Assembly (NCBI GenBank): GCA_043820815.1
Contig: JBDRDJ010000005.1
Coordinates: forward strand, 105,517 to 169,516
From: Candidatus Omnitrophota bacterium
GTDB taxonomy: Bacteria > Omnitrophota > Gorgyraeia > Duberdicusellales > 4484-171
Direction: 5' to 3'
DNA length: 64,000 nucleotides
Positions 9,090 through 29,883 of the stretch are shown one piece after another. The notes below the pieces were generated by a model. The model had not been told where the DNA came from. It made no database searches and was given only the letters and a program-made list of their open reading frames with translations. Numbering within the stretch: position 1 is the first letter of the stretch; each line of letters opens with the position of its first letter. The position numbers and the translations under genes are program-made.

Positions 9090-9163
9090 TGGGCCATGAA
9101 GGACTTGAACCTTCAACCTCCGGATTAAGAGTCCGCTGCTCTGCCGAATTGAGCTAATGGCCC
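9090..9163 (-). tRNA. tRNA-Lys (anticodon CUU); CCA not encoded
   Basis: The reverse complement folds as a cloverleaf: acceptor GGGCCAT/ATGGCCC, T-loop GGTTCAAGTCC, anticodon loop CT-CTT-AA with U33. Confidence 0.8.
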
Positions 9164-9283
9164 TATTATACGTTTTGCGGGGTGCGGGTTGCGGAATTCA
9201 ATAGCAGAAAAAAGTCAAGAAATAATAATGAACACGAGCCCCGGATAAATCTATTTTGCATAACATCAAAAATTACGCATAGG

Positions 9284-9667
9284 CTAGCTTTTTACCTTAT
9301 GCGATAGAGACTCGCGGACGGTGTGTTTTAATTCTTCGTTATCCCATGGCTTCTGAATAAATCTAAAGATCTCTCCTTTGTTAACGGCATCTACTAATCC
9401 GTTAAAATCATTATATCCTGAAAATAAAATCCGGATAACTTTAGGGTATTTTTGATTGACGATTTTTAACATTTGCGAACCGCTCATGTCAGGCATTTTT
9501 TGATCAACCATAACAAGGTCAATCTTTTCCTTTTCTAAAATTTCCAAACCCTCTTTTGCCGACCTGGCAGAATGAACCGCATAACCTTCTTTTTTGAAAA
9601 TCTTTTCTAAGCCAGTAACGACTATCGCCTCATCATCAACGCATAAAATAGAATGTTCCTTTTCCAT
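9284..9667 (-). CDS. Single-domain response regulator (CheY-like receiver)
   Basis: ILCVDDE...DLVMVDQKMPDMSG...ILFSG...K receiver motifs. Confidence 0.8.
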   Translation of the reverse strand: MEKEHSILCVDDEAIVVTGLEKIFKKEGYAVHSARSAKEGLEILEKEKIDLVMVDQKMPDMSGSQMLKIVNQKYPKVIRILFSGYNDFNGLVDAVNKGEIFRFIQKPWDNEELKHTVRESLSHKVKS

Positions 9668-9895
9668 AAACCACCTCCAGCTTCATGAATCAATTTAGAT
9701 AACATAAGAATACCATGCAAATATTTTAAACCCGATAAGAACAGGTGGCAAGAGTAATTTTTGGCCACTTCTCACATTTGCGAAAAAAGAGAAAGAACCT
9801 GATTGCACAGATTTTTTATTTATTTACAATGAAAATAATTTTGTCCCGATGGAAGTTTCTGATTTTTTTTAAAGCGGCGAAGAGGAATAAAAAAA

Positions 9896-9936
9896 CCCGG
9901 CAACTACCTACTCTCCCACAACCTTGCGATTGCAGT
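9896..9936 (-). repeat. Exact 41-nt duplicate of the 3' end of 5S rRNA, followed by a T-run (partial 5S copy)
   Basis: Identical to 10015-10055; the next bases are the inverted repeat GGTTCGACTTCG. Confidence 0.8.
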
Positions 9937-10014
9937 GGTTCGACTTCGTCCTTCGACTCGTTTCACTCGCTCAGAACGACTCTGAGCGAAGCGAGAAATG
10001 GCATATAAAAAAAG

Positions 10015-10131
10015 CCCGGCAACTACCTACTCTCCCACAACCTTGCGATTGCAGTACCATCGGCCTCGGAGGACTTAACGGCCGTATTCGGAATGGGAAC
10101 GGGTGTGGCCCCTCCAGTTTGGTCACCGGAC
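10015..10131 (-). rRNA. rrf: 5S ribosomal RNA
   Basis: The reverse complement matches 5S landmarks (CCCGTTCCCATTCCGAAC, GGGAGAGTAGGTAGTTGCC); helix I pairs the two termini. Confidence 0.85.
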
Positions 10132-10602
10132 AATATTTTTATAATAAACCAAATTATCAATTAGAACGGGTGTCATTTCAAGCGAAGTCGAACCATGGCC
10201 CCTCCAGTATAGACACCGGGATTTTTTCTTTTTTCTTGGTTCGTATTTCGCAGGGGATAAAACCCAGAACGAAACACGAACCAAGAAAAAAGTGGTTGGA
10301 TATCAAGCCTATTGGCTTATTAGTAGTGCTCGGCTAAACATATTACTATGCGTACACCTGCACCCTATCAGGTGGTAGTCTCCCACCAGCCTTCATCCCG
10401 GGCGAACCCGGAAAGGGATTCTTAGTTTCGGGGTTAGCTTCCCGCTTAGATGCATTCAGCGGTTATCCGAAAGGAACATAGCTACCCAGCCTTTACTCCT
10501 GGCGGAATAACTGGTACACCAGAGGTTCCTCTGTCCCGGTCCTCTCGTACTAGGGACAGCTCCCCTTCAAGAATCCTAACACCCACAGTGGATAGAGACC
10601 GA

Positions 10603-11362
10603 CAGTTTTGTTACTCTTATCCGATTTTCATTGGATAAAGGGCTAATCATTTCTGTTAGCCTCTGCACGTCGCCGTGCAGCTCGGACTGTATCTTCCTTT
10701 GACATCTTTGATGTCAAAGGTCCGGCGTACAGTCTCTGAGGGTTACAAAGAAGCAATTAGTTCCTTAAGAGACAACTTTCTATATTTGCCTCTACTATTC
10801 ATAGAAAAAGCGATCTTAAGGATTTGTATTAATCCATCTTTGGCGAGGTGATTTTTCTCAAACATCATATTCACTACTTTCTTAAATTTAAGAAAATCTT
10901 GATGCTTACAAATCAACGGATAGCTATGGAAAAAAGGTATCACTCTATCTCTTAAGTTTTTTAAATCCCTCACCACAAAAACCCATGTCAAATCATAAGG
11001 ATTTTTACTGTGATTTGGCTTTAAATAACCACAGTCAAGAGTTACCTTAATAAATTCCAATACTTGTGTGCGATTGCCATGCTGTGAAACATGAAATTCA
11101 GGAATAATCTGAATACCTAATCGCACGTTCTTGCTTCGTTGGATTGTGATAGAAAAACTACCTTCACCATCTACAAATCCCGCAATATAATCGCCAGTTT
11201 GCCTCTTTGTCCTTCCCTGCTGATTGTCTGCACCCATATATTGTCACTCCTAACTAATGTTAATCAATATATTTTACACTATAGAGACTAAATAGTCAAA
11301 TAGTAATATGGGATACCCAGATTTTCCAGCATATAGCCAGATTTAAAGACAGCAAATCTCTT
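10603..11362 (-). mobile_element. Group I intron in 23S rRNA domain V (inserted after ...GTGAGACAGT, before TCGGTC)
   Basis: Exon 1 ends GAGACAGU and the intron contains GCUGUC nearby, giving P1 with the U.G wobble. The intron ends in G. R-like (TCAGAGACTG) and S-like (AAGATACAGTCC) core elements lie in the 3' part. The exons rejoin to the conserved ...GAGACAGTTCGGTC. Confidence 0.8.
10743..11237 (-). CDS. Intron-encoded LAGLIDADG homing endonuclease (single-motif, I-CreI-like size, 164 aa)
   Basis: The motif YIAGFVDGEGSF near the N-terminus is the LAGLIDADG signature; the ORF lies wholly inside the group I intron. Confidence 0.85.
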   Translation of the reverse strand: MGADNQQGRTKRQTGDYIAGFVDGEGSFSITIQRSKNVRLGIQIIPEFHVSQHGNRTQVLEFIKVTLDCGYLKPNHSKNPYDLTWVFVVRDLKNLRDRVIPFFHSYPLICKHQDFLKFKKVVNMMFEKNHLAKDGLIQILKIAFSMNSRGKYRKLSLKELIASL

Positions 11363-11502
11363 ACTGTCTCACGACGTTCTGAACCCAGCTCACGTACCCT
11401 TTTAACCGACGAACAGTCGGACCCTTGGGACCTTCTCCAGCCCCAGGATAGGATGAGCCGACATCGAGGTGCCAAACCGCGCCGTCGATGTGAACTCTCG
11501 GG

Positions 11503-11552
<50 letters not shown>

Positions 11553-12015
11553 GCTCCCACGCGCAACCACCGGATCATTAGGCCCTGCTTTCGCATCTGC
11601 TTGGCTTGTCAGCCTCGCAGTCAAGCACCCTTGTGCCCTTACACTCACCGTCCGATTTCCAAACGGACTGAGGGTACCTTTGGGCCCCTCCGTTACTCTT
11701 TAGGAGGGAACTGCCCCAGTTAAACTGCCCAACTGGCACGGTTCTCTGCACAACACAGAGTTAGAATCTTAACATAATAAGGGTGGTATTTCACCGGTGG
11801 CTCCTCCCGACCTAGCGGCCGAAACTCAAAGCCTCCCACCTATGCTACACATATTAGGCCAAAATTCAATACCAGCCTACAGTAAAGGTTCCGGGGTCTT
11901 TTCGTCCTACTGCGGGTAGACGGCATCTGAACCGCCACTACAATTTCGCCGAGAGCCTCGCTGAGACAGTGTTCCCATGGTTTTACCTTTCGTGCGGGTC
12001 GGAAATTACCCGACT

Positions 12016-12056
<41 letters not shown>

Positions 12057-13457
12057 ATTCACCAGGGCTTCGGTTCAAAGCTTCTTCTGACGAATCAGAA
12101 TAACCTTTTCCCTTAACCTTCCGGCATTGGGCAGGTCTCAGTCCCTATACATCCTCTTGCGAGTTAGCAGGGACATGTGTTTTTGCTAAACAGTCCCAGG
12201 AACCATTTCTCTGCGCCCATGACATAAATGTCAAGGGACCCCTTCTCGCGAACTTACGGGGTTATTTTGCCGAGTTCCTTAGCGAGGTTTATCTCGAGCG
12301 CCTTACCATACTATGGCAGCCTACCTGTGTCGGATTCCGGTACGGTCACCTATAGACAACTTAAGAAACTGTTTCTTGGCACTCAATCCTGATGGGTTCG
12401 CCCGCGCCGTAGCTTGGACTCCTGCCGGTCCCTTACGGAACCGAAAACGGACACATCCAACAGTCCGACCATCGCATCTTGTGCGTCATCTCTTAAGTTA
12501 ACGCCTATAGGTGGGGGGTGAACTATTAACACCCTTACCCATCGCCTACTCCCGTTAAACCGGGATTTGACTTAGGGACCGCCTAACCTCCGTTTGACGA
12601 ACATTGACGGAGAAACCTTAGGCTTTCGGCGCACCGATTTTTCATCGGTGTTTTCGCTACTCATTCCAGGATACTCACTTCTATGCGCTCCAGCTTGATT
12701 TACATCAAACCTTCAGTGCGCGTAGAACGCTCCCCTACCCCTTCCGATTATTCATCGGAAAGCCGCGGTTTCGGTAACAGGCTTGAGCCCCGATCATTTT
12801 CGGCGCAAAATCACTCGATCGGTGAGCTATTACGCACTCTTTAAATGATGGCTGCCTCTAAGCCAACATCCCGACTGTCTTAGCAACTTCACATCCTTTA
12901 ACACTTAGCCTGTGTTTTGGGACCTTAACCGGCGGTCTGGGCTGTTTCCCTTTCGACTATGGAGCTTAGCCCCCACAGTCTCACTCCTCGGGTAAGAACA
13001 GTAAAGATTCGGAGTTAGGTTGGGTTTGGTATGGACTCTGTCCACCCTAGCCCATCCTGTGCTCTACCCTCTACGTCCAATCCCGAAGGCTGACCCTAAA
13101 GTCATTTCGGGGAGAACCAGCTATCACCAATCTTGATTAGCCTTTCACTCCAACCCACAGCTCATCCGAGCCTTTTTCAACAGACACCAGTTCGGGCCTC
13201 TATCCCGCTTTCGCGGGACTTCACCCTGGCCATGGGTAGATCGACTGGCTTCGGGTCTATTTCCTACCACTAAAACGCCCTGTTAGGACTCGGTTTCCCT
13301 ACGCCTGCCCCTTATTAGTTACAATAAGGGTTAAACTCGTGATAAAAAATAACTCCCTGGACCATTATGCAAAAGGTACGCCGTCGCCACGCCATTGCTG
13401 ACGGGCTTCGACCGCTTTGTAAACTTATGGTTTCAGATTCTATTTCACTCCCCTCAC

Positions 13458-13494
<37 letters not shown>

Positions 13495-14070
13495 ACTATC
13501 GGTCTGATGCGAGTATTTAGCCTTGCCCCGTGGTCAGGGCGAATTCCCACAAAGTTTCTCGTGCTCCGTGGTACTTGGGAATACATGCCAGAGAGTTTTT
13601 TCCATTTTGCTTACAGGACTATCACCCTCTATGGTGCCGCTTTCCAGCAGCTTCTGCTATAGAAAAAATTTTTGACTCTCCGAGAGCACTGCCGCGCTCT
13701 CCACTTGTACCCCGTAACTCTCAAAAAGCAACACCGGCAGGCTTATAAACTTTTTGAGTTTGGGCTGTTCCCTTTTCGCTCGCCGCTACTGGGGGAATAC
13801 TGTACGGTTTCTCTTCCTCCGGCTACTGAGATGTTTCACTTCACCGGGTTAGTCCCCTTGATATTGTCATACCAAGGGTTTCCAGGCATTACCCTGGAAG
13901 GGTTACCCCATTCGGGAATCTGCGGATCAAAGAAAGCTTGCCTCTCCCCGCAGCTTATCGCAGCTTGCCACGCCCTTCATCACCTGCATCAACCAAGCCA
14001 TCCTCCATAAGCTCTTAGTAGCTTGATACCCAACCAAATTTTCAAAGACCAAATTTATTTTTTTCCTCAA

Positions 14071-14143
14071 TGGACCTGAGGAGACTTGAACTCCTGACCC
14101 CCTGCGTGCAAAGCAGGTGCTCTCCCAGCTGAGCTACAGGCCC
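14071..14143 (-). tRNA. tRNA-Ala (anticodon UGC) with a G3:U70 identity pair; CCA not encoded
   Basis: The reverse complement is GGGCCTGTAGCTCAGCTGGGAGAGC...CTTTGCACG...GGTTCAAGTCTCC...CAGGTCCA; located in the 16S-23S spacer. Confidence 0.9.
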
Positions 14144-14153
14144 TAATAGCTAA

Positions 14154-14226
14154 TGGGCTCAGGTGGGATTGAACCACCGACCCCCGCGTTATCAGCACGG
14201 TGCTCTTCCAACTGAGCTATGAGCCC
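14154..14226 (-). tRNA. tRNA-Ile (anticodon GAU); CCA not encoded
   Basis: The reverse complement is GGGCTCATAGCTCAGTTGGAAGAGC...CTGATAACG...GGTTCAATCCCACCTGAGCCCA; in the spacer. Confidence 0.9.
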
Positions 14227-14306
14227 ACTTTAACATTGGAACAGCTTCCCAGCACTGACCCTGAACAAGCCCAAGCTCTGTTTATGTGAATGGGCGCGTC
14301 GAAGGG

Positions 14307-14341
14307 TCAGCACGGTGCTCTTCCAACTGAGCTATGAACCC
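14307..14341 (-). pseudogene. Duplicated 5' half of tRNA-Ile (35 nt, 34/35 identical; ends inside the anticodon loop after CUGA)
   Basis: GGGTTCATAGCTCAGTTGGAAGAGCACCGTGCTGA on the minus strand, 80 nt upstream (in transcript sense) of the intact tRNA-Ile. Confidence 0.7.
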
Positions 14342-14576
14342 AGAACCACGGAATCGCGGAAAAAAACGGAAATACTTGAAATAATTACTTCTAAGTATTT
14401 CCGTTTTTCCACATTTTTCTGTGGTTCCGTGATATAAAGACAAAAGCCTTTGAAGGGGTGTCCTTCATGTATTTTTTTACCTCGTTCCTTCGAGGTCATT
14501 TTCTAGCCGCAGAAAGAAAGTTAAGATTTCTCGCTTTCGCTCGAAATCATTTCCTTTATCTACGATAAAGAAAATG

Positions 14577-16165
<1,589 letters not shown>

Positions 16166-16349
16166 CAAAGGCTATTTTTCCATAATTAGAAAGAGCAAAA
16201 AAATATAAACCTCCCTTACAGAATAAGGGGGTTTCCTTATCTTGCCAACTAACATTAAGATGTTAACTAATTCGCTATCTTAGGTAAGCAGGTTTTGATT
16301 TAGATATAGTTTTCCCACTCCGAATAGTCAAACTTACTTTTAAAATGAG

Positions 16350-24599: not shown

Positions 24600-26555
24600 T
24601 TAGAATTCGCATTTAAAACCGGTGTAGAGAGATAGTTTTTCTTCCTGATAACCCTTGATTCTTTCGTAATCTTTATTTAATAAATTATTCACCTTTATAA
24701 ACAACGTTGATTTATCATTAAGCCGGTAGTTGCAATTTAAATTAACTAGAGTGTAAGGCTTCATAGGAACAAAACTATCCACTGCCCCAACCCATATTCT
24801 ATCAGTTCTCGAGCCTGCGTAAATAAAATCTAAAATTGTTTTTAATTTCTTAAATTCCCATGTAATATTAAAATATGCCTTATGCCTGGGCACGCGGATT
24901 AAGGCACGGCTGAAAATATCCACTAAATTATCGTCAACAAAATCCTGCTCACCGTTTAAATGCGTATATCCGGTTTCAATTTTTAAGGCTTCATCGGGCT
25001 TATAATCAAAAGAAATCTCAACTCCCCTCATTTTCTGCTTAGCGGCATTTTTGTATTCTCCCTGATAAAGCGAAGGATTTGTAAATACAAAATCAATTAA
25101 TCCTTTCAAATTGGAGTGAAAGTAGGCAAAATTAAGCGATATTTTATCGCCAAAGGCTTGCTTGAAGCCGGCCTCCCAGGTTTTTGACTCTTCCGGTTCA
25201 AGATTGCGGTTTCCGTTTGATGAAAACAGCTGATACAAAGACGGTGCTTTAAACCCCTCTCCGTAAGAAAAGAATAGATTAGAATTATCAATAGGGCTGT
25301 AAGAAACTCCTGATTTCACAACAGAATGATATTTAAAAAGAGGGCTGTATTCACGCCGGTATGAAAAATCTACATTTAGATTTTCCCATGGGTTTATAAT
25401 CTGCTCAACAAACCACCCCTTGGCATAGCTGCTTACCTTAGGCGAATCAGAAGCATACCCAAAAGCCCAGGCGTAATCATAGGTATACCTGTAGCTGTCC
25501 ATATGCTCCTGGGTATAATCAAAGCCTACGAGAGTCCTGTATTCATTTAAAGGCCGCAGCTCGAAATGGTTTGACAGCTGATAAGTGCTGCCTTTATACC
25601 AACCTCTTGTATATTCATCAGCGCCGCCCTCATTGTCATCAAAAACTTTCCTGTAAATCCTGGTATAGCCGGCCTGGATTTTATAATCAAGGCAATCGAG
25701 TAAATTTTTCTTAATGTAAGTAGTGCCAAAAAACTCATTACCTATATTTAGATTATCAGGGTCATCTTCGGGAAATCCGTCTAAGTTATCGTCATCATCT
25801 ATCTCAGTTCTGGAATGTGAGCCTCTCATATAAAGGGCCATCTCAAGATTTTGCGGTTCTTGATAATTTAACCCCAGTGTAAGATTTGTATTCTGGTAGG
25901 GGTCACGTTCAGGGTTGTTATTCTTTTCTTTTGCTTTTGAAATACCTTTTGAATCAACCCGGGCAATATTAAAAAGATAGGATAAATTATTTGATTCTCC
26001 GCCTAATTCTAAGCTTTCTTGAAATGTATCGTGAGAACCGGATAAAGATGAAATATTGATATGCGGCCGGCCAGCAGGCCTTTTAACAAGAAAATTAACC
26101 GCACCTCCTATAGGAGAAGATCCGTAAAGGGATGAAAGGGGGAATTTTACAATCTCTATTTTATTGAGGCCGGTTGCGAGAAAGTCCGAAGGCACGTAGT
26201 AGGCTGATGTATTTGAAGGGTCATAGATTTTTAATCCTTCAAATAAATAGGCAGTATGCCTTGTTCTTGCTCCTCTTATATAGATTCCCTCAGAGGAACT
26301 TCCGAGCCTACCTCCGCCTATAACATCAACGCCGGTTATGCCTGAAAGAGTTTCGCCGGCAGTAAACAGGTTTTTGCCTTCAATATTCTCTTGGCCTAAA
26401 ACATTAACATGAATATCGTGATATTTTGACTCTACCTCAGTCTTTGAAGGCGTGATTACTAAATTGCCCAGGTCAACGGGATCCTGGCTGTAACAGACCA
26501 GGGATACAAGACACAAGACCGCAGGCAATAATAATTTTTTTAATAATTTTGGCAT
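24600..26555 (-). CDS. btuB: TonB-dependent outer-membrane receptor (cobalamin receptor BtuB-like)
   Basis: Signal peptide, TonB-box-like DLGNLVITPSKTE, plug and barrel, C-terminal ...FKCEF ending in Phe; first gene after a cobalamin riboswitch. Confidence 0.8.
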   Translation of the reverse strand: MPKLLKKLLLPAVLCLVSLVCYSQDPVDLGNLVITPSKTEVESKYHDIHVNVLGQENIEGKNLFTAGETLSGITGVDVIGGGRLGSSSEGIYIRGARTRHTAYLFEGLKIYDPSNTSAYYVPSDFLATGLNKIEIVKFPLSSLYGSSPIGGAVNFLVKRPAGRPHINISSLSGSHDTFQESLELGGESNNLSYLFNIARVDSKGISKAKEKNNNPERDPYQNTNLTLGLNYQEPQNLEMALYMRGSHSRTEIDDDDNLDGFPEDDPDNLNIGNEFFGTTYIKKNLLDCLDYKIQAGYTRIYRKVFDDNEGGADEYTRGWYKGSTYQLSNHFELRPLNEYRTLVGFDYTQEHMDSYRYTYDYAWAFGYASDSPKVSSYAKGWFVEQIINPWENLNVDFSYRREYSPLFKYHSVVKSGVSYSPIDNSNLFFSYGEGFKAPSLYQLFSSNGNRNLEPEESKTWEAGFKQAFGDKISLNFAYFHSNLKGLIDFVFTNPSLYQGEYKNAAKQKMRGVEISFDYKPDEALKIETGYTHLNGEQDFVDDNLVDIFSRALIRVPRHKAYFNITWEFKKLKTILDFIYAGSRTDRIWVGAVDSFVPMKPYTLVNLNCNYRLNDKSTLFIKVNNLLNKDYERIKGYQEEKLSLYTGFKCEF

Positions 26556-26694: not shown

Positions 26695-26895
26695 TTTAGG
26701 TTCTATTTCCGCGCAAAACCTAAAGTCACATACTTATTCAGCAGGTCTTCTGACTTACCCGCTCTTTTAACGCCTTCCCATCCTAATTTATTCGGAAAGT
26801 GGCTTAAGTGTTAAAAGAGTTTTCTCATCTTAAGAGAAACAGGATCACAGCTCCGGGAGAGCTGCCGAATTTCACGGCATTCCCTTTTAATCCAT
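26695..26895 (-). promoter_or_regulatory. Cobalamin (AdoCbl) riboswitch
   Basis: Minus strand carries GGGAATGCCGTGAAATTCGGCAGC...CCCGGAGCTGTGATCC...GCCACT...GGGAAGGCG...AGTCAGAAGACCTGCTG. This matches the cobalamin aptamer core (GGGAA..GGTGAAA.TCC..GC.G.CCC.GC.ACTGT) and B12 box (AGYCAGGAGACCTGCC). Confidence 0.8.
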
Positions 26896-27088
26896 ATGGC
26901 ACTGAATCAGTAAATTAATCAAATTTTTAAAGAGCTGATTTATTTTACATGAAGGAGATGTTGTGTCAAGCTTTTTCGGAATACGGATAGCGACCGAAGG
27001 GAGTCCTGAGCGAGACCGAAGGTCGAGTCGAAGGGCGGATTGCGTGATGCGTTATTGTTCGGTGTTGGTTATTTGCAGGCACGCATTA

Positions 27089-27511
27089 TCAAGCACCAGA
27101 AAGGTAAGACTTTACCGTTTTAAGATAATCGCTAATTACTGCGGGGATATTTTGAAGTTTATCGTAAACAATTTCGTGGTCTAAAGCCGCGTATTCGTGA
27201 ACAAGTATATTTCTGAACCGGGCCAGGTCGATAAGTTTTTCTTTTAACTCACTGTCAATAATATTATTTTCAAATAAGATTCTTGGTATCTCAGCATAAG
27301 TATCGGGCTTGCGAAACTTCTTTTCGCTGATAATTATTTCTCCGATAGTTAGATATGCTTCCAAAGCTAAATGAAGCTCCCTTTCGGCCAAATCATGAAT
27401 CTTCCAATCAGAAAGAAATTTATCACGTGAACATTTCTTAAGCTCATTCAGCTGTTTTGCATAACGCTCTAACTCTAATAAATACTTGGCTATTTTTTCC
27501 TGATCAACCAT
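27089..27511 (-). CDS. hepT: HEPN-domain toxin HepT (DUF86)
   Basis: 140 aa with the C-terminal R-x4-HxY motif (RNILVHEY); directly downstream of an MNT-type nucleotidyltransferase. Confidence 0.8.
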   Translation of the reverse strand: MVDQEKIAKYLLELERYAKQLNELKKCSRDKFLSDWKIHDLAERELHLALEAYLTIGEIIISEKKFRKPDTYAEIPRILFENNIIDSELKEKLIDLARFRNILVHEYAALDHEIVYDKLQNIPAVISDYLKTVKSYLSGA

Positions 27512-27516
27512 AAAAG

Positions 27517-27927
27517 TTAACCATCTTTTATCGCCTGCCTTGTATATTTATCAAGATAAGGCTTCCAGTCCAGATATTTAAGTATAGTTATCTGCTCATA
27601 ATCAAGTCTCAGTTTTTCATCGGCGCAGTAAATAAGTTTGCCGTCACGCAGAATTCTTTGCGCTAAGAAAGGGCTTGCATTGTTTAAAAGCACAAGGTCT
27701 ATCTCGTCAGTCTTAAGGGCATCGTTTAACCGGCCAAGCAGTTCTAATTTCTTTCCGGAATATTCCTTCCTATCCAATCCTCCTATATACAAAGCAATGT
27801 CAATATCACTCAAAGGACCGGTTGAGCCTTTTGCCTGTGAGCCAAAAAGATAAGCAAACACAACACCGCTATCTCTACATACAGCGTTTATCTTCTCCCC
27901 GATCTCTTCTCTGTTATGCTTTGCCAT
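27517..27927 (-). CDS. mntA: Minimal nucleotidyltransferase MntA (antitoxin, pol-beta-type NTase)
   Basis: GS-x10-SDID motif (FGSQAKGSTGPLSDIDIAL) of the pol-beta NTase fold; 136 aa; 5-nt gap to hepT. Confidence 0.8.
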   Translation of the reverse strand: MAKHNREEIGEKINAVCRDSGVVFAYLFGSQAKGSTGPLSDIDIALYIGGLDRKEYSGKKLELLGRLNDALKTDEIDLVLLNNASPFLAQRILRDGKLIYCADEKLRLDYEQITILKYLDWKPYLDKYTRQAIKDG

Positions 27928-28029: not shown

Positions 28030-28810
28030 ACCACAGAGGCCGCAGGGTGTAGGTCGAGTAGACCCGTATTTCAGAGCCCCTCACAGAACCGTACGTGCGG
28101 ATTTCCCGCATACGGCTCTTGAGTAAATTTCCATCAGTATACGATTATGCGTATCACATTATCAACCCCTACCGCTTTATTCCTGTCAAGCGTATAGAAG
28201 CTCGCCTTTAAGGATTCCTTGTTAACATGTTGCATTATGTTGACAAACTTTCGCTTAGAATCCCTTGCGGCATACTGACTTAGTGTGGTTAATTTCGTTC
28301 CCACTGTTTTCCTTTGAACTTTGAGTTCATACAATGTTTCCTTAACCACATTCAACTTACTCCTAACCCCTTCGAGCAGCTTTAAGCTTTAGCGGCGTTA
28401 CCCGCTATTGACTCTAATATGGATTAGTCCGACTACCATTCATGTCGTACTATTGCCTTACTTCTTCAGCTTAAGCACTAGCTTAATTGGAAACATGATG
28501 GTCATCCCAAGTTCCAATGCAAACATTCGATAACCCACGGTGGCTTACTACCCCGGCAGGACAACATATCCTTGCCATAGCGTTTATGCTGTTACTGGTT
28601 TCCAGCACTTGAAAACTTTAACCCACTGCTACATGTCTATTTCGGGGCTAAAAATCCTTCACTTGTGTTACCGTTGATTATCTCCTTCCCCTTGGCTTTG
28701 CACGATTTGTTACCGCCTCGTACACAAGGTTCAGTACCTCCCTGATGGCTAATCTTTAAGAGAGTTAGCTTTTACATACTAACCTGTCTGCATCAGCTTT
28801 CTTGGCGCAC
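28030..28810 (-). mobile_element. ORF-degenerate group II intron (about 0.78 kb), probably class C: inserted in intergenic DNA immediately after a stem-loop
   Basis: 5' end GTGCGCC (revcomp of 28804-28810). Domain V GAGCCGTATGCGGGAAATCCGCACGTACGGTTC (revcomp of 28086-28118) matches the DV consensus. A 73-aa RT N-terminal remnant sits between. The exon flank just 5' of the insertion forms the hairpin TCAAGTCTCAACTTGA. The 3' boundary is approximate; D6 was not resolved. Confidence 0.75.
28134..28355 (-). pseudogene. Remnant of the group II intron-encoded reverse transcriptase/maturase (N-terminal 73 aa only)
   Basis: The translation ...LYELKVQRKTV...FVNIMQHVNKESLKASFYTLDRNKAVGVDNV resembles the RT0/N-terminal region of intron-encoded proteins (..L...I...NL..A...V..NKGAAGVDG..). 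The ORF stops 16 nt before DV. Confidence 0.6.
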
Positions 28811-28940
28811 TCAAGTTGAGACTTGACCCCCATTTTCTAAGGCACAAAGACACAAAGGCTTAAAAGTAATATATTTTAATAACAAAAAATCTTCGTGATC
28901 TTTGTGCGAGCATAGACAGCGTAATTCTTCAAATACATTT

Positions 28941-29115: not shown

Positions 29116-29883
29116 TTAAAAACAAGGTTCCTTTAGACCGGAACAACTCAGCGATATCGTACGTATACCACCTACCGCACAACTATTTTGACGTTGCCAA
29201 CCACTAGCATTGGTATAATACCAAACCCAATTATCAGTACAGGAAACCCATTGTTTAGTCTTTATAGCATCAACCTTGGTATAACCTTCAAGTTCGCATA
29301 AATGCTTAGCAGTTGTATTGTCGGCCCTTGTCTGTTCCGAATCATCAGCTACTGGTAGACCTGCACCCTCGCTGCCTGCAAGTTGATTAATTCTACTTTC
29401 ACCAAGAACAACATTCTCCGGTGGGCACCAACACGGAATCCATACTGCTTTTCCAGCGCCATCTGACTTAAGACAATCACCTTTCTTGCCCTCTGCAACC
29501 GGCAACTCATATCCAACCCCAGGGGCACCAATATTTACCTGCCCTTCTAAGAGAGCTGTACCGACAACATCAAGATTCTCTCTAGGTTCACGAGTCCCTA
29601 TGCCCAAACTGCCAGATAGTGCCAAACTTCCCGGCAAAGGATCACCGTTTATGTCAACAGCCATGTCTGCATTAGTAACTTTACCGTCTCCATCAACATC
29701 TCCAAGAACAACGGTGTTGGTAATAATGAGATCTTTATACACCCCGTAAGGTGCCGGGTAATAGGTTGTAAGTGAAATTTTCTCGCCATCAGGCTCCTCT
29801 GCCTTAGGCTTAGAAAAACCGGTAAACACCACTGAAACAGCGAGAAACAAAAATGCAATTAGAATAAAGGCTCTTTTTGACAT
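29116..29883 (-). CDS. Secreted paralog family protein P4 (ISLTTYYPAPYG motif, dockerin-like DVDGDGKVTNAD loop; divergent Cys-rich C-terminus)
   Basis: Probable start MSKRAF (RBS AAGGAGG), not the upstream ATG at 29913. Signal peptide; EKISLTTYYPAPYGVYKDLII; GDVDGDGKVTNADMAVDINGD; SLGIGTREPRENLDV; 10 Cys in the C-terminal 110 aa. Confidence 0.65.
   Translation of the reverse strand: MSKRAFILIAFLFLAVSVVFTGFSKPKAEEPDGEKISLTTYYPAPYGVYKDLIITNTVVLGDVDGDGKVTNADMAVDINGDPLPGSLALSGSLGIGTREPRENLDVVGTALLEGQVNIGAPGVGYELPVAEGKKGDCLKSDGAGKAVWIPCWCPPENVVLGESRINQLAGSEGAGLPVADDSEQTRADNTTAKHLCELEGYTKVDAIKTKQWVSCTDNWVWYYTNASGWQRQNSCAVGGIRTISLSCSGLKEPCF

Follow-up and report, generated by a model that had tools for sequence, protein, structure and literature searches.

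A group II intron that has lost most of its reverse transcriptase ORF in an Omnitrophota genome, and its probable place in a compact, endonuclease-less lineage

Introduction

In contig JBDRDJ010000005.1 of a Candidatus Omnitrophota bacterium (assembly GCA_043820815.1) a 73-aa ORF is annotated as hypothetical protein ABH872_01485. What element does this ORF belong to, how did it come to be so short, and can the element still function? The window discussed here is the whole 64,000-nucleotide stretch that was analysed (contig positions 105,517 to 169,516), and all coordinates are window positions. An initial annotation, made from the letters alone, had read the ORF as the N-terminal stub left in a group II intron after deletion of most of the protein gene, and had assigned the intron to class C because of its intergenic position and a stem-loop beside its 5' end. 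The first part of that reading holds: the element is a genuine self-splicing group II intron, its splicing ability being predicted from sequence, and it is a common sort of non-autonomous copy of an already known type of mobile element. The class assignment is replaced here. With a probability of roughly 0.8 we regard the copy as a non-autonomous, ORF-deleted, compact group II intron of an endonuclease-less IIB-like lineage with class E/F RNA traits (Rfam D1D4-6 type).

Identity and extent of the intron

The intron occupies 758 nt of the minus strand and reads 5' GUGCG ... CUACUCGAC 3'. Its 5' half matches the covariance model RF02005 (E = 1.8e-30, more than twice the gathering score of 49) and its 3' part, from 28120 to 28053, matches RF00029 (61.9 bits, E = 9.6e-10), both far above chance. 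The second match ends at 28053, the 3' boundary of the intron. All six ribozyme domains are found (Table 1), and the domain V (DV) catalytic triad and bulge, the domain VI branch-point A and both intron ends are intact; the ends fit the group II rule of a 5' GUGYG and a 3' AY (here ...GAC). The GTGCGCC start at 28810 lies 692 nt before the start of domain V and 724 nt before its end, in agreement with the initial estimate of about 725 nt. Domain V itself had been called perfect. It is indeed present and unique, occurring once in the window even when three mismatches are allowed (chance expectation 0), but it is 33 nt long, with a 4-bp upper stem and a 5-nt GAAAU loop in place of the canonical 34 nt and GNRA tetraloop.

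The structure is supported by an RNAalifold consensus of 15 sequences with 111 pairs, 60 of which show compensatory changes, and this copy keeps 105 of the 111. The stretch between the end of domain I and domain III includes GGUAGUCGGACUAA at 28437-28424, which is invariant in the intron family. Exon recognition is equally clear on the 5' side. The insertion point is ...CAACTTGA/CTACAC..., and in 14 of 15 relatives the EBS1 loop changes in step with the 5' exon, forming 6-7 bp with at least seven different IBS1 sequences. A candidate EBS3 column carries G where IBS3 is C or U and fits 15 of 16 introns, the exception being locus L141; it is U in L002 (IBS3 A), while L130, 97% identical to L002, has G (IBS3 C), which amounts to one covariation. 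The delta position beside EBS1 does not track the 3' exon, and for EBS2-IBS2 no alignment column covaries with, or consistently complements, 5'-exon positions from about -6 to -22.

The setting is intergenic, beside a toxin-antitoxin pair, as had been noted. On one side is a 265-aa ORF ending at 29116, and on the other a nucleotidyltransferase/HepT pair (PF18765 + PF01934) of the MntA/HepT type. Joining the exons yields no credible ORF. There is no second intron or RT gene in the 64-kb window, the intron flanks are not repeated elsewhere in the window or in related loci, and a comparison of the window with L002 gave no flank homology apart from a short homing-site motif.

Table 1. Features of the intron and its insertion site (window coordinates; all on the minus strand)
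Feature	Position	Strand	Basis or remark
Whole group II intron	28053..28810	-	Sequence; RF02005 and RF00029; ends set by alignment with 15 or more relatives
5' splice-site consensus GUGCG	28806..28810	-	GUGYG conserved across all relatives
Domain I core, Rfam group-II-D1D4-6 (RF02005 match)	28541..28773	-	110.7 bits
alpha (UUAGCCAUC loop; GCCAU pairs with alpha')	28744..28752	-	R/Y covariation with alpha' loop, 15 sequences
alpha' (AUGGC), terminal loop of domain Id3 hairpin	28570..28581	-	R/Y covariation, 15 sequences
Candidate EBS3 (G)	28626	-	Pairs with C at 28052, first 3'-exon base
EBS1 (UCAAGU), terminal loop of domain I	28607..28612	-	Pairs with IBS1 over 6 bp without mismatch
IBS1 (ACUUGA), last 6 nt of 5' exon	28811..28816	-	Sequence; alignment with relatives
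Domain I end, domain II, J2/3, domain III	28364..28540	-	RNAalifold consensus, 15 sequences
Domain IV after the deletion, 245 nt	28119..28363	-	Consensus fold with covariation
73-aa ORF remnant	28134..28355	-	RT-homologous part 28298-28155
Deletion junction (…GAUAAUGUGA/UACGCAUAA…)	28153..28154	-	BLASTN against full-length L002; motif coordinates
Domain V, GAGCCGTATGCGGGAAATCCGCACGTACGGTTC: AGC triad, AC bulge, 4-bp upper stem, 5-nt loop GAAAU (GCGG-GAAAU-CCGC)	28086..28118	-	
Linker and domain VI, bulged branch-point A at 28059, 3' terminal AC	28053..28085	-	RF00029 alignment
5'-exon hairpin TCAAGT-CTCA-ACTTGA	28811..28826	-	3' arm = IBS1; 5' arm same sequence as EBS1
TTAGAAAATGGGGGTCA	28824..28840	-	Matches 5' half of the homing site of sister introns L002, L130, L137 (…AGAAA…GGGGTCA/)
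13 nt AGTCTCAACTTGA, then C at 28052	28811..28823	-	Resembles sister-intron 3' end (GTCTACTTGAC)

Loss of the open reading frame

The initial annotation placed the 73-aa ORF just upstream of domain V, and so it lies, although its stop ends 15 nt before domain V and not 16. Only RT residues 3-50 find a match, at 71% identity to a full-length relative, which agrees with the earlier reading of an N-terminal stub, and the original ATG of the RT is GTG in this copy. Homology to full-length introns ends at 28156 and restarts at 28153. One clean deletion of about 1.13 kb has stripped the RT/maturase ORF of everything between codon ~50 (GVDNV) and the two codons that precede the stop. What is kept is 50 codons at the N-terminal end and, at the other end, the final two with the stop (TACGCATAA). 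An intact RT/maturase in domain IV, which autonomous mobility needs, is absent, and the dependence of such copies on help in trans for any movement, in line with the earlier reading, is supported. An assembly artefact was considered as the cause of the deletion and rejected, since a similar but non-identical junction is found in an independent assembly (L129). The two sides of the junction share just 1-3 nt, which also makes k-mer collapse unlikely.

What is left of domain IV is well structured. A basal stem pairs 28362-28354 with 28130-28122, a DIVa-like hairpin contains the old start codon, and a second closing helix pairs UCAGUAU with AUACUGA; inside are two inner hairpins and a small hairpin that holds the deletion junction in its 3-nt loop. 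The single-sequence minimum free energy is -70.6 kcal/mol (z = -5.7 against shuffles). The retained codons are also unusual in their conservation: the fraction of identical codons is 0.71 in the first 50 codons and 0.51 in the remainder (Mann-Whitney p = 1.8e-5), and this block ranks 1 of 387 sliding windows by that measure. Such codon comparisons point to constraint at the RNA level on the retained codons.

That constraint bears on whether the remnant could be a functional small protein. Its frame is open, it has a TTG/GTG start and it is annotated as a gene product. Its content, however, is RT residues 3-50 followed by an out-of-frame tail (IRIIVY), it has no match in Pfam or NCBIfam, it is a singleton among 5.8 billion proteins, and the region is constrained as RNA rather than as protein, all of which makes a protein function very improbable.

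Class of the intron

Full-length relatives, about 1.89 kb long with a 1.3-kb ORF, are present in other Omnitrophota assemblies and encode RTs of 432-445 aa. These match TIGR04416 (361 bits) and have no endonuclease domain; in Pfam nearly all show RVT_1 alone, two a GIIM maturase domain and two a weak RdRP_1 match. The RT lineage is about 36-48% identical to the relatives found in cultured organisms. A 5-nt DV loop and an alpha' at the tip of the Id3 stem-loop, both seen here, are traits given for IIE and IIF introns (PMC3753933). DV loops of this type are present in 136 DV matches in related loci, and where such a 5-nt-loop domain V occurs together with any match to a 5' model, that model is RF02005 in 22 of 22 loci (17 + 4 + 1 from three sets). 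The RF02005 loci include Firmicutes, Bradyrhizobium and an accessory plasmid of S. meliloti. The ribozyme is small, 758 nt including an ORF stub of ~200 nt (450-700 nt without ORF in class E/F). D1D4-6 is the sole family listed for the 5' half at E <= 1; a further overlapping hit of lower score, belonging to the same clan, was not itemised. By its RNA traits, then, the intron fits a compact, endonuclease-less, class E/F-like lineage.

Class C introns are known to target a stem-loop upstream of a short IBS1, and the initial annotation saw in the stem-loop TCAAGTCTCAACTTGA a terminator-like target with the intron inserted just after it. Such a hairpin does exist and directly abuts the 5' splice site, as had been described, and hairpins of this kind (a perfect stem of at least 6 bp ending within 2 nt) stand at 0.9% of window positions. 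In L126, too, a hairpin (5 bp) ends 2 nt ahead of the insertion site, and small size, an intergenic position and relatives without an endonuclease domain are all as in class C. The stem, however, is AT-rich and lacks a T-run, it is not called by a terminator scan (the nearest terminator-like site, 29144-29127, is ~290 nt from the hairpin), IBS1 itself serves as its 3' arm, and a hairpin of this kind is missing from 12 of 14 related insertion sites, whereas IIC introns insert immediately behind the stem-loop of an intrinsic terminator or an attC site (PMC4424553). IIC introns are also described with a shortened EBS1, part of it missing, and no EBS2 (PMC3753933); here EBS1-IBS1 is 6 bp and covarying. 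For the 5' half the matching model is D1D4-6 instead of D1D4-3, which was hit by the one IIC phage intron described in PMC12350094, and the AGC triad and 5-nt loop of domain V speak against class C as well. Against solved IIC RTs the RT of a relative scores 137-159 bits and against IIA/IIB RTs 147-153 bits; it is no nearer to the former, and such scores do not discriminate class. Taken together, membership of class C, and with it a role of the stem-loop as a IIC-type target, is contradicted on defining features and barely credible, and the E/F-like placement is kept.

The relatives have conserved homing sites of 15-20 nt, and the sequence upstream of the intron contains the 5' half of one of them, followed by 13 nt that resemble the 3' end of a sister intron (Table 1). 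These 13 nt are possibly the stub of an earlier insertion. Tandem introns are seen in L129 and L141.

Origin of the deletion

In this family the ORF is bracketed by a conserved long-range helix, GYGUARG (RT codons ~49-51) with YUUUAYRC (last codons), in full-length relatives for instance GCGUAGG with UUUUACGC. Of 17 introns, 16 have it, at a length of 5-7 bp and in U-A, C-G and U-G variants, and its covariation comes down in essence to a single double change that separates two clades, with a wobble pair as intermediate. The other ORF-less copy with a comparable junction, L129, is 81% identical to full-length L003/L019 and 66% to this copy, and the breakpoints of the two lie 3 nt apart on the 5' side and 12 nt apart on the 3' side. 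This breakpoint region is common to these two ORF-less copies only. In L082 and four other ORF-less D1D4-6 introns the extent of loss differs, and among truncated N-terminal RT ORFs no further case with the GVD breakpoint was found; they end elsewhere, mostly at contig ends.

In our main reading a polymerase probably skipped across the base of the helix, most simply the RT of the intron while it copied intron RNA in the course of retromobility. The 5' ORF segment, the first 50 codons, was probably retained for its structure as RNA, a DIVa-like platform for protein binding, rather than for what it encodes. A broader, tentative account is that the helix encloses ~1.13 kb of dispensable ORF and that jumps of an RT or other polymerase repeatedly spawn ORF-less introns that can be mobilised in trans, this copy and L129 being independent products. 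On this account the copy may also have inserted by homing at a canonical GGGGTCA site, into the 13-14 nt that an aborted insertion of a sister intron had left of its 3' end. We hold this broader account to be less probable than a coin toss by some distance. The near-coincident breakpoints could instead reflect selection, with deletions arising anywhere and persisting only where the DIVa platform and the 3' strand of domain IV were left in place. The constraint on synonymous sites stops at the breakpoint, so that the retained block is a functional unit, and the varying extents of loss in the other ORF-less D1D4-6 introns fit this too. Selection alone, on the other hand, would allow 5' breakpoints anywhere past codon ~50 and not 3 nt apart, and both junctions lie on or beside the two strands of one conserved helix; we consider selection a doubtful, if conceivable, explanation.

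Present state of the copy

For splicing and movement the intron would need the RT/maturase supplied in trans by a related intron at another place in the genome, and whether the intron is still active by this route appears to us evenly balanced. It might instead be a dead relic that neither splices nor moves, its good preservation being due to recent loss of function. No helper RT was found in the window, and none tagged with the source assembly (ABH872) was seen among the 13 NCBI-sourced clusters checked within the best 120 of 7,991 RTs, a check that left out four other NCBI-sourced entries of the best 120 and that pseudogenes escape. The source genome was not among the matches listed (at least 120 loci) in a scan of a genome collection with the DV pattern. 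The window contains a single copy of the ORF-less form, with no proliferation of copies sharing its breakpoint, and the stub protein is a singleton, so there is no sign that the ORF-less form has multiplied. The 238-kb contig was assembled straight through the intron, which suggests that the genome may hold no near-identical repeats of it. The former ATG is now GTG, and the alpha' loop reads GGCAAG where the family has GGYGAG. At sites that do not vary among 11 relatives the copy carries 21 changes (0-10 in other introns), and six of its pairs are non-canonical (four in the domain II region, two in the alpha' stem), both compatible with some decay. Against a relic stand the perfect EBS1-IBS1 pairing, the candidate EBS3 that pairs with IBS3, the intact catalytic motifs and a covariance score of 110.7 bits that exceeds those of the closest relatives L002, L003, L102 and L129 (84.6-104). 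Several of the lineage-specific changes are compensatory, and other Omnitrophota assemblies contain full-length relatives. We rate the relic as a serious alternative, somewhat short of even odds.

Comparison with known introns

The closest likeness is to class E/F introns such as Cl.be.I2, Ge.ur.I1 and Pe.th.I2 (PMC3753933). Shared with them are the 5-nt DV loop, the alpha' in the Id3 terminal loop, the small ribozyme, the 6-bp EBS1-IBS1, the endonuclease-less RT/maturase (in the full-length relatives of this intron) and a D1D4-6 5' half in common with Firmicutes and rhizobial introns. It differs in its deleted ORF, in the low identity of its RT lineage to the relatives from cultured organisms and in EBS2, for which no pairing was found; it may belong to E, to F or to some newer group. 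In Thermosynechococcus elongatus, the TeI3 introns, which are chloroplast-like IIB, include 17 copies with one shared breakpoint (PMC2882425). The ORF-less TeI3 copies resemble the present intron in having a single large domain IV deletion that leaves N- and C-terminal ORF stubs, in pairing well with their flanks through EBS-IBS, and in needing the IEP of a related intron. Here, in contrast, there is one copy, with no helper or sister copy in the window or among the source-assembly-tagged RTs checked (13 NCBI-sourced clusters).

The IIC introns B.h.I1 and O.i.I1 are likewise small and intergenic, with an endonuclease-less RT and a hairpin by the insertion site. The present intron departs from them in its full 6-bp EBS1, AGC triad, 5-nt DV loop and D1D4-6 rather than D1D4-3 5' half; its hairpin is neither terminator nor attC and overlaps IBS1, and its relatives use conserved 15-20-nt homing sites. 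Archaeal ORF-less derivatives adjoin RT-encoding relatives, and introns there home into related introns. ORF-less and nested group II introns of archaea were reportedly described by Dai and Zimmerly in 2003. Such nested introns are echoed by the insertion that this copy may have made into what was left of a sister intron's 3' end, and by the tandem arrangements of L129 and L141.

Implications

ORF-less group II introns have been called rare in bacteria by reviews (PMC4424553). In this lineage ORF loss is frequent: this copy and L129 lack nearly the whole ORF, L082 has a partial ORF, L067, L021, L121 and L080 have no ORF remnant, and L002, L130 and L003 have decayed ORFs. For annotation, the 'hypothetical protein' ABH872_01485 is an RT stub within an intron, and the class of such an intron is to be judged by EBS1, the DV loop and the model matched by its 5' half, not by a nearby hairpin. 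If a helix-bracketed deletion is the true origin of this copy, it would provide a simple structural path from an autonomous retroelement to a non-autonomous, splicing-only intron, a step that is central to ideas on the origin of spliceosomal introns.

Identity and boundaries of the intron

The window contains a group II intron of 758 nt whose ORF has been deleted; it is genuine and well preserved, and it belongs to a class E/F-like lineage in an Omnitrophota genome. Covariance models bear out the intron that the initial annotation had noticed: a Rfam scan at curated thresholds gave two matches, one for the 5' half (RF02005) and one for domains V and VI (RF00029). A sensitive rescan of the region added only two weak plastid domain V (DV) models on the same DV. 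The DV string, the 73-aa ORF, the hairpin in the 5' exon and the neighbouring nucleotidyltransferase/HepT genes were all found as the annotation described them. The DV string occurs once in the window with up to three mismatches permitted, and neither Rfam, the DV string nor RT homology revealed a second intron or RT within the 64 kb.

Features of the intron and its surroundings (window positions; a slash marks the splice junction)
Feature	Position	Strand	Detail
5' junction	28810	minus	...GGGGTCAAGTCTCAACTTGA/GTGCGCCAAG...
3' junction	28053	minus	...GGGTCTACTCGAC/CTACACCC...
group-II-D1D4-6 (RF02005)	28773-28541	minus	110.7 bits, E = 1.8e-30
DV/DVI model (RF00029)	28120-28053	minus	61.9 bits
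73-aa ORF	28355-28134	minus	
5'-exon hairpin	28826-28811	minus	
Nucleotidyltransferase (PF18765) + HepT ribonuclease (PF01934)	27089-27927	minus	125 nt downstream of intron
Cobalamin riboswitch	26723-26921	minus	94.2 bits
TonB-dependent receptor gene	24600-26555	minus	Plug + beta-barrel domains
rRNA operon	9090-16171	minus	
16S	14577-16171	minus	followed by two tRNAs
23S	11321-14028	minus	
5S	10014-10130	minus	
tRNA	9090-9163	minus	

Exon recognition and state of the ribozyme

The EBS1 loop GUUUUCAAGUGCUGG (28616-28602) contains UCAAGU, the exact complement of ACUUGA, the last six exon bases. Across the aligned relatives this loop covaries with the 5' exon, with 6-7 bp in 14 of 15 introns (loop/exon pairs UGACCC/GGGUCA, UGUCCC/GGGACA, GGGACG/CGUCCC, GGGACA/UGUCCC, GCAACU/AGUUGC and GGGAGG/CCUCUC), which fixes the 5' splice site and shows that EBS1 is full-length. 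The candidate EBS3 is G at 28626, facing C at 28052, the first base of the 3' exon. In the sister intron L002 this column is U and the 3' exon begins with A, in L130 (97% identical to L002) it is G and the 3' exon begins with C, and another related intron, L141, is the one exception to the fit. Comparison of the aligned relatives with the exon gave no convincing candidate for EBS2.

Of 111 consensus pairs in domains I-III, 60 show compensatory changes; the window copy retains 105 of the 111, and four pairs are broken in the domain II region and two in the alpha' stem. At sites invariant in 11 relatives it carries 21 changes (0-10 in the others), several of which are paired and compensatory. 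The catalytic motifs are intact, and the covariance score of 110.7 bits is at least as high as those of the closest relatives (L002 84.6, L129 101.5, L003 102.2, L102 104.1). The chance that this copy is still active is about even.

Assignment to class

The class C (IIC) assignment of the initial annotation, and the terminator targeting that went with it, are not supported. In IIC introns part of EBS1 and all of EBS2 are missing (PMC3753933), and their insertion sites are terminators or attC sites (PMC4424553). The window intron fails on the defining features of the class, as its EBS1 is complete, and the hairpin proposed as a IIC target is an AT-rich 6-bp stem without a T-run whose 3' arm is IBS1. 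In a terminator scan the closest terminator-like site (29144-29127) lay where the upstream ORF ends, and its T-run stops ~290 nt from the 5' splice site. A hairpin ends within 2 nt of the insertion at only 2 of 14 related sites; the background in the window is 0.9% of positions for stems of at least 6 bp and 2.9% for at least 5 bp. Several sub-lineages have 15-20-nt homing sites in common, for example GGAATTCCGGGGRCA/ and TAATTWAGTRT..TGTCCC/.

Classes E and F are peculiar in their 5-nt DV loop, the position of alpha' at the tip of the domain Id3 hairpin and a length of 450-700 nt (PMC3753933). Like them, the window intron has a 5-nt DV loop (GCGG-GAAAU-CCGC), an alpha' in a terminal loop and a compact ribozyme; the R position of the alpha-side loop UUAGCCAUC covaries with the Y of the terminal loop GGYGAG in 15 of 15 sequences. 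Among the matches listed, all loci of the same DV type with any 5'-model match show RF02005 (22 loci, 17 + 4 + 1 from three Rfam scans, 73-171 bits), including loci in Clostridium, Roseburia, Blautia, Dialister, Bradyrhizobium and an S. meliloti accessory plasmid, whereas the single IIC phage intron of PMC12350094 matches D1D4-3. RT scores against solved IIA, IIB and IIC RTs (137-159 bits for all) do not discriminate class. On DV loop, alpha' placement, size and RF02005 matches the intron is filed as class E/F-like, a label that takes the two classes together. At another locus (L119:4903-5565) a DV of the 5-nt-loop pattern is preceded, at a distance of ~390 nt, by a weak, IIC-type D1D4-3 match (40.9 bits), and the stretch between the two holds no RT; the locus may represent an ORF-less intron with mixed features.

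Insertion site and neighbourhood

The sister introns L002, L130 and L137 home to ...AGAAA...GGGGTCA/, and the 5' half of this site is matched by the 5' flank of the window intron (TTAGAAAATGGGGGTCA, 28840-28824). The 13 nt between this motif and the intron, AGTCTCAACTTGA, together with the C after the intron, resemble the 3' end of the sister introns, GTCTACTTGAC. In one coherent, unproven scenario a sister intron inserted here earlier but abortively and left 14 nt as a stub; the present intron (EBS1 UCAAGU) would have homed into that stub, one base short of its end, and the hairpin would have arisen as a by-product of the juxtaposition. In L141 and L129 introns lie in tandem at spacings of 110-250 nt, which shows that members of the family do cluster; ~250 nt beyond the L129 intron is the 5' end of another, at a TGTCCC site. 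At a contig end in L019 (3152-3129, minus strand), the 24 nt before the intron open with AAGAGTAATT, the first 10 nt of the L002 3' exon, either by chance in AT-rich homing sites or because the contig broke off at an intron copy lying upstream. In Clostridium sp. Marseille-P2415 (L065:447-3869), two RT-encoding D1D4-6 copies lie head to tail in 3.4 kb.

L002 also has a nucleotidyltransferase/HepT pair, ~1.8 kb from its intron, plus an HTH/SocA_Panacea gene, and toxin-antitoxin or defence genes seem to be plentiful around introns of this lineage. Elsewhere in the window, the cobalamin riboswitch is directly upstream of the TonB-dependent receptor gene, and the 23S rRNA match needs just 2708 nt to span all 2925 positions of the model but still shows some inserted segments.

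Relatives and their reverse transcriptases

NCBI lists a hypothetical protein, ABH872_01485, that is 99% identical to the 73-aa ORF and comes from a 238-kb contig of a Candidatus Omnitrophota MAG; the ORF is otherwise a singleton among 5.8 billion proteins searched. A 118-aa fragment (P0002), 71% identical to it, runs on into genuine RT motifs that begin where the ORF diverges. P0002, together with contig look-ups and a single metagenome scan for a domain II/III motif, led to ~20 related introns (L001-L003, L019, L124-L146). Intact ones encode RT/maturases of 432-445 aa without an endonuclease domain, which pass the NCBIfam group II RT model (361 bits, cut-off 300). RT relatives number in thousands, and annotated ones are present in other Omnitrophota assemblies; a helper RT could not be traced to the source assembly, its ABH872 tag being absent from the 13 NCBI-sourced clusters examined within the best 120 of 7,991 RTs.

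In one sub-lineage (L003, L127, L129, L134-L136) domain VI carries an ~80-90-nt insertion, which extends the RF00029 match from ~70 to ~157 nt and is absent from the window copy and the L002/L124 group. L130 (1915-2913), a sister intron inserted at GGGGTCA, has decayed: its ORF has lost two internal stretches, a GGTAGTC segment of domain III is duplicated, and the DV loop has gained a palindrome of 20 nt (CCTGCCTGCCGGTAGGCAGG).

Loss of the reading frame

Homology to full-length relatives runs up to 28156 (...GVDNV) and resumes at 28153 with TACGCATAA, which in the ancestral ORF was the final two codons plus the stop; by this alignment ~1.13 kb was lost in one event. RT residues 3-50 are all that survives, and GTG has replaced the original ATG start. 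The remaining domain IV (28363-28119) has a predicted fold of -70.6 kcal/mol (z = -5.7), with a basal stem, a hairpin containing the former start codon, two inner hairpins and a second closing helix, UCAGUAU with AUACUGA, that covaries; a further, small hairpin carries the deletion junction within its AUA loop. Across six intact ORFs the fraction of identical codons among same-residue pairs is 0.71 in the first 50 codons vs 0.51 in the rest (Mann-Whitney p = 1.8e-5; highest among 387 sliding windows). The stub thus corresponds to a block under RNA-level constraint and may be a DIVa-like protein-binding platform, of which such constraint would be expected. A sigma-70-like consensus match (TTGATA, 18 nt, TATACT; 10/12) at 28136-28165 on the minus strand contains the junction and faces DV and the downstream mntA/hepT; the deletion may have given rise to a promoter-like site that faces outward.

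A second ORF-less intron of the lineage, on a 1.1-kb metagenome contig (L129:1-1116), is 81% identical in domains I-III to the full-length L003 and L019 and 66% to the window copy, so each copy lost its ORF independently. The breakpoints of the two deletions are 3 nt (5') and 12 nt (3') apart. In full-length introns the sequences around the two breakpoints can pair with each other: GYGUARG lies at the Val codon of GVDxV, and its partner YUUUAYRC at the final Phe-Tyr codons. Of 17 sequences, 16 form 5-7 bp of this helix, which contains U-A in one clade, C-G in a second and U-G in L002. The simplest explanation would be a jump across the base of the helix by a polymerase, plausibly the RT as it copied intron RNA; with thin covariation and two cases only, we regard this as tentative, at roughly three chances in ten.

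ORF loss is common elsewhere in the D1D4-6 group, with different end points. L082 keeps ~116 N-terminal RT residues, and L067, L021, L121 and L080 have no ORF remnant; in these five, from Roseiarcus, other Alphaproteobacteria and Lentisphaeria, the D1D4-6 match stops 282-358 nt short of DV. L002, like L130, has internal ORF deletions. L003 has one in-frame TGA (1341-1343, Arg in relatives) in an otherwise full-length RT ORF and is either a pseudogene or from a host reading TGA as sense. About a dozen other loci among the matches listed show DV/DVI only and are probably 5'-truncated copies. ORF-deleted group II introns are already known as a kind, and the window copy is a further example; only the proposed recurrent, helix-bracketed deletion is of some wider interest.
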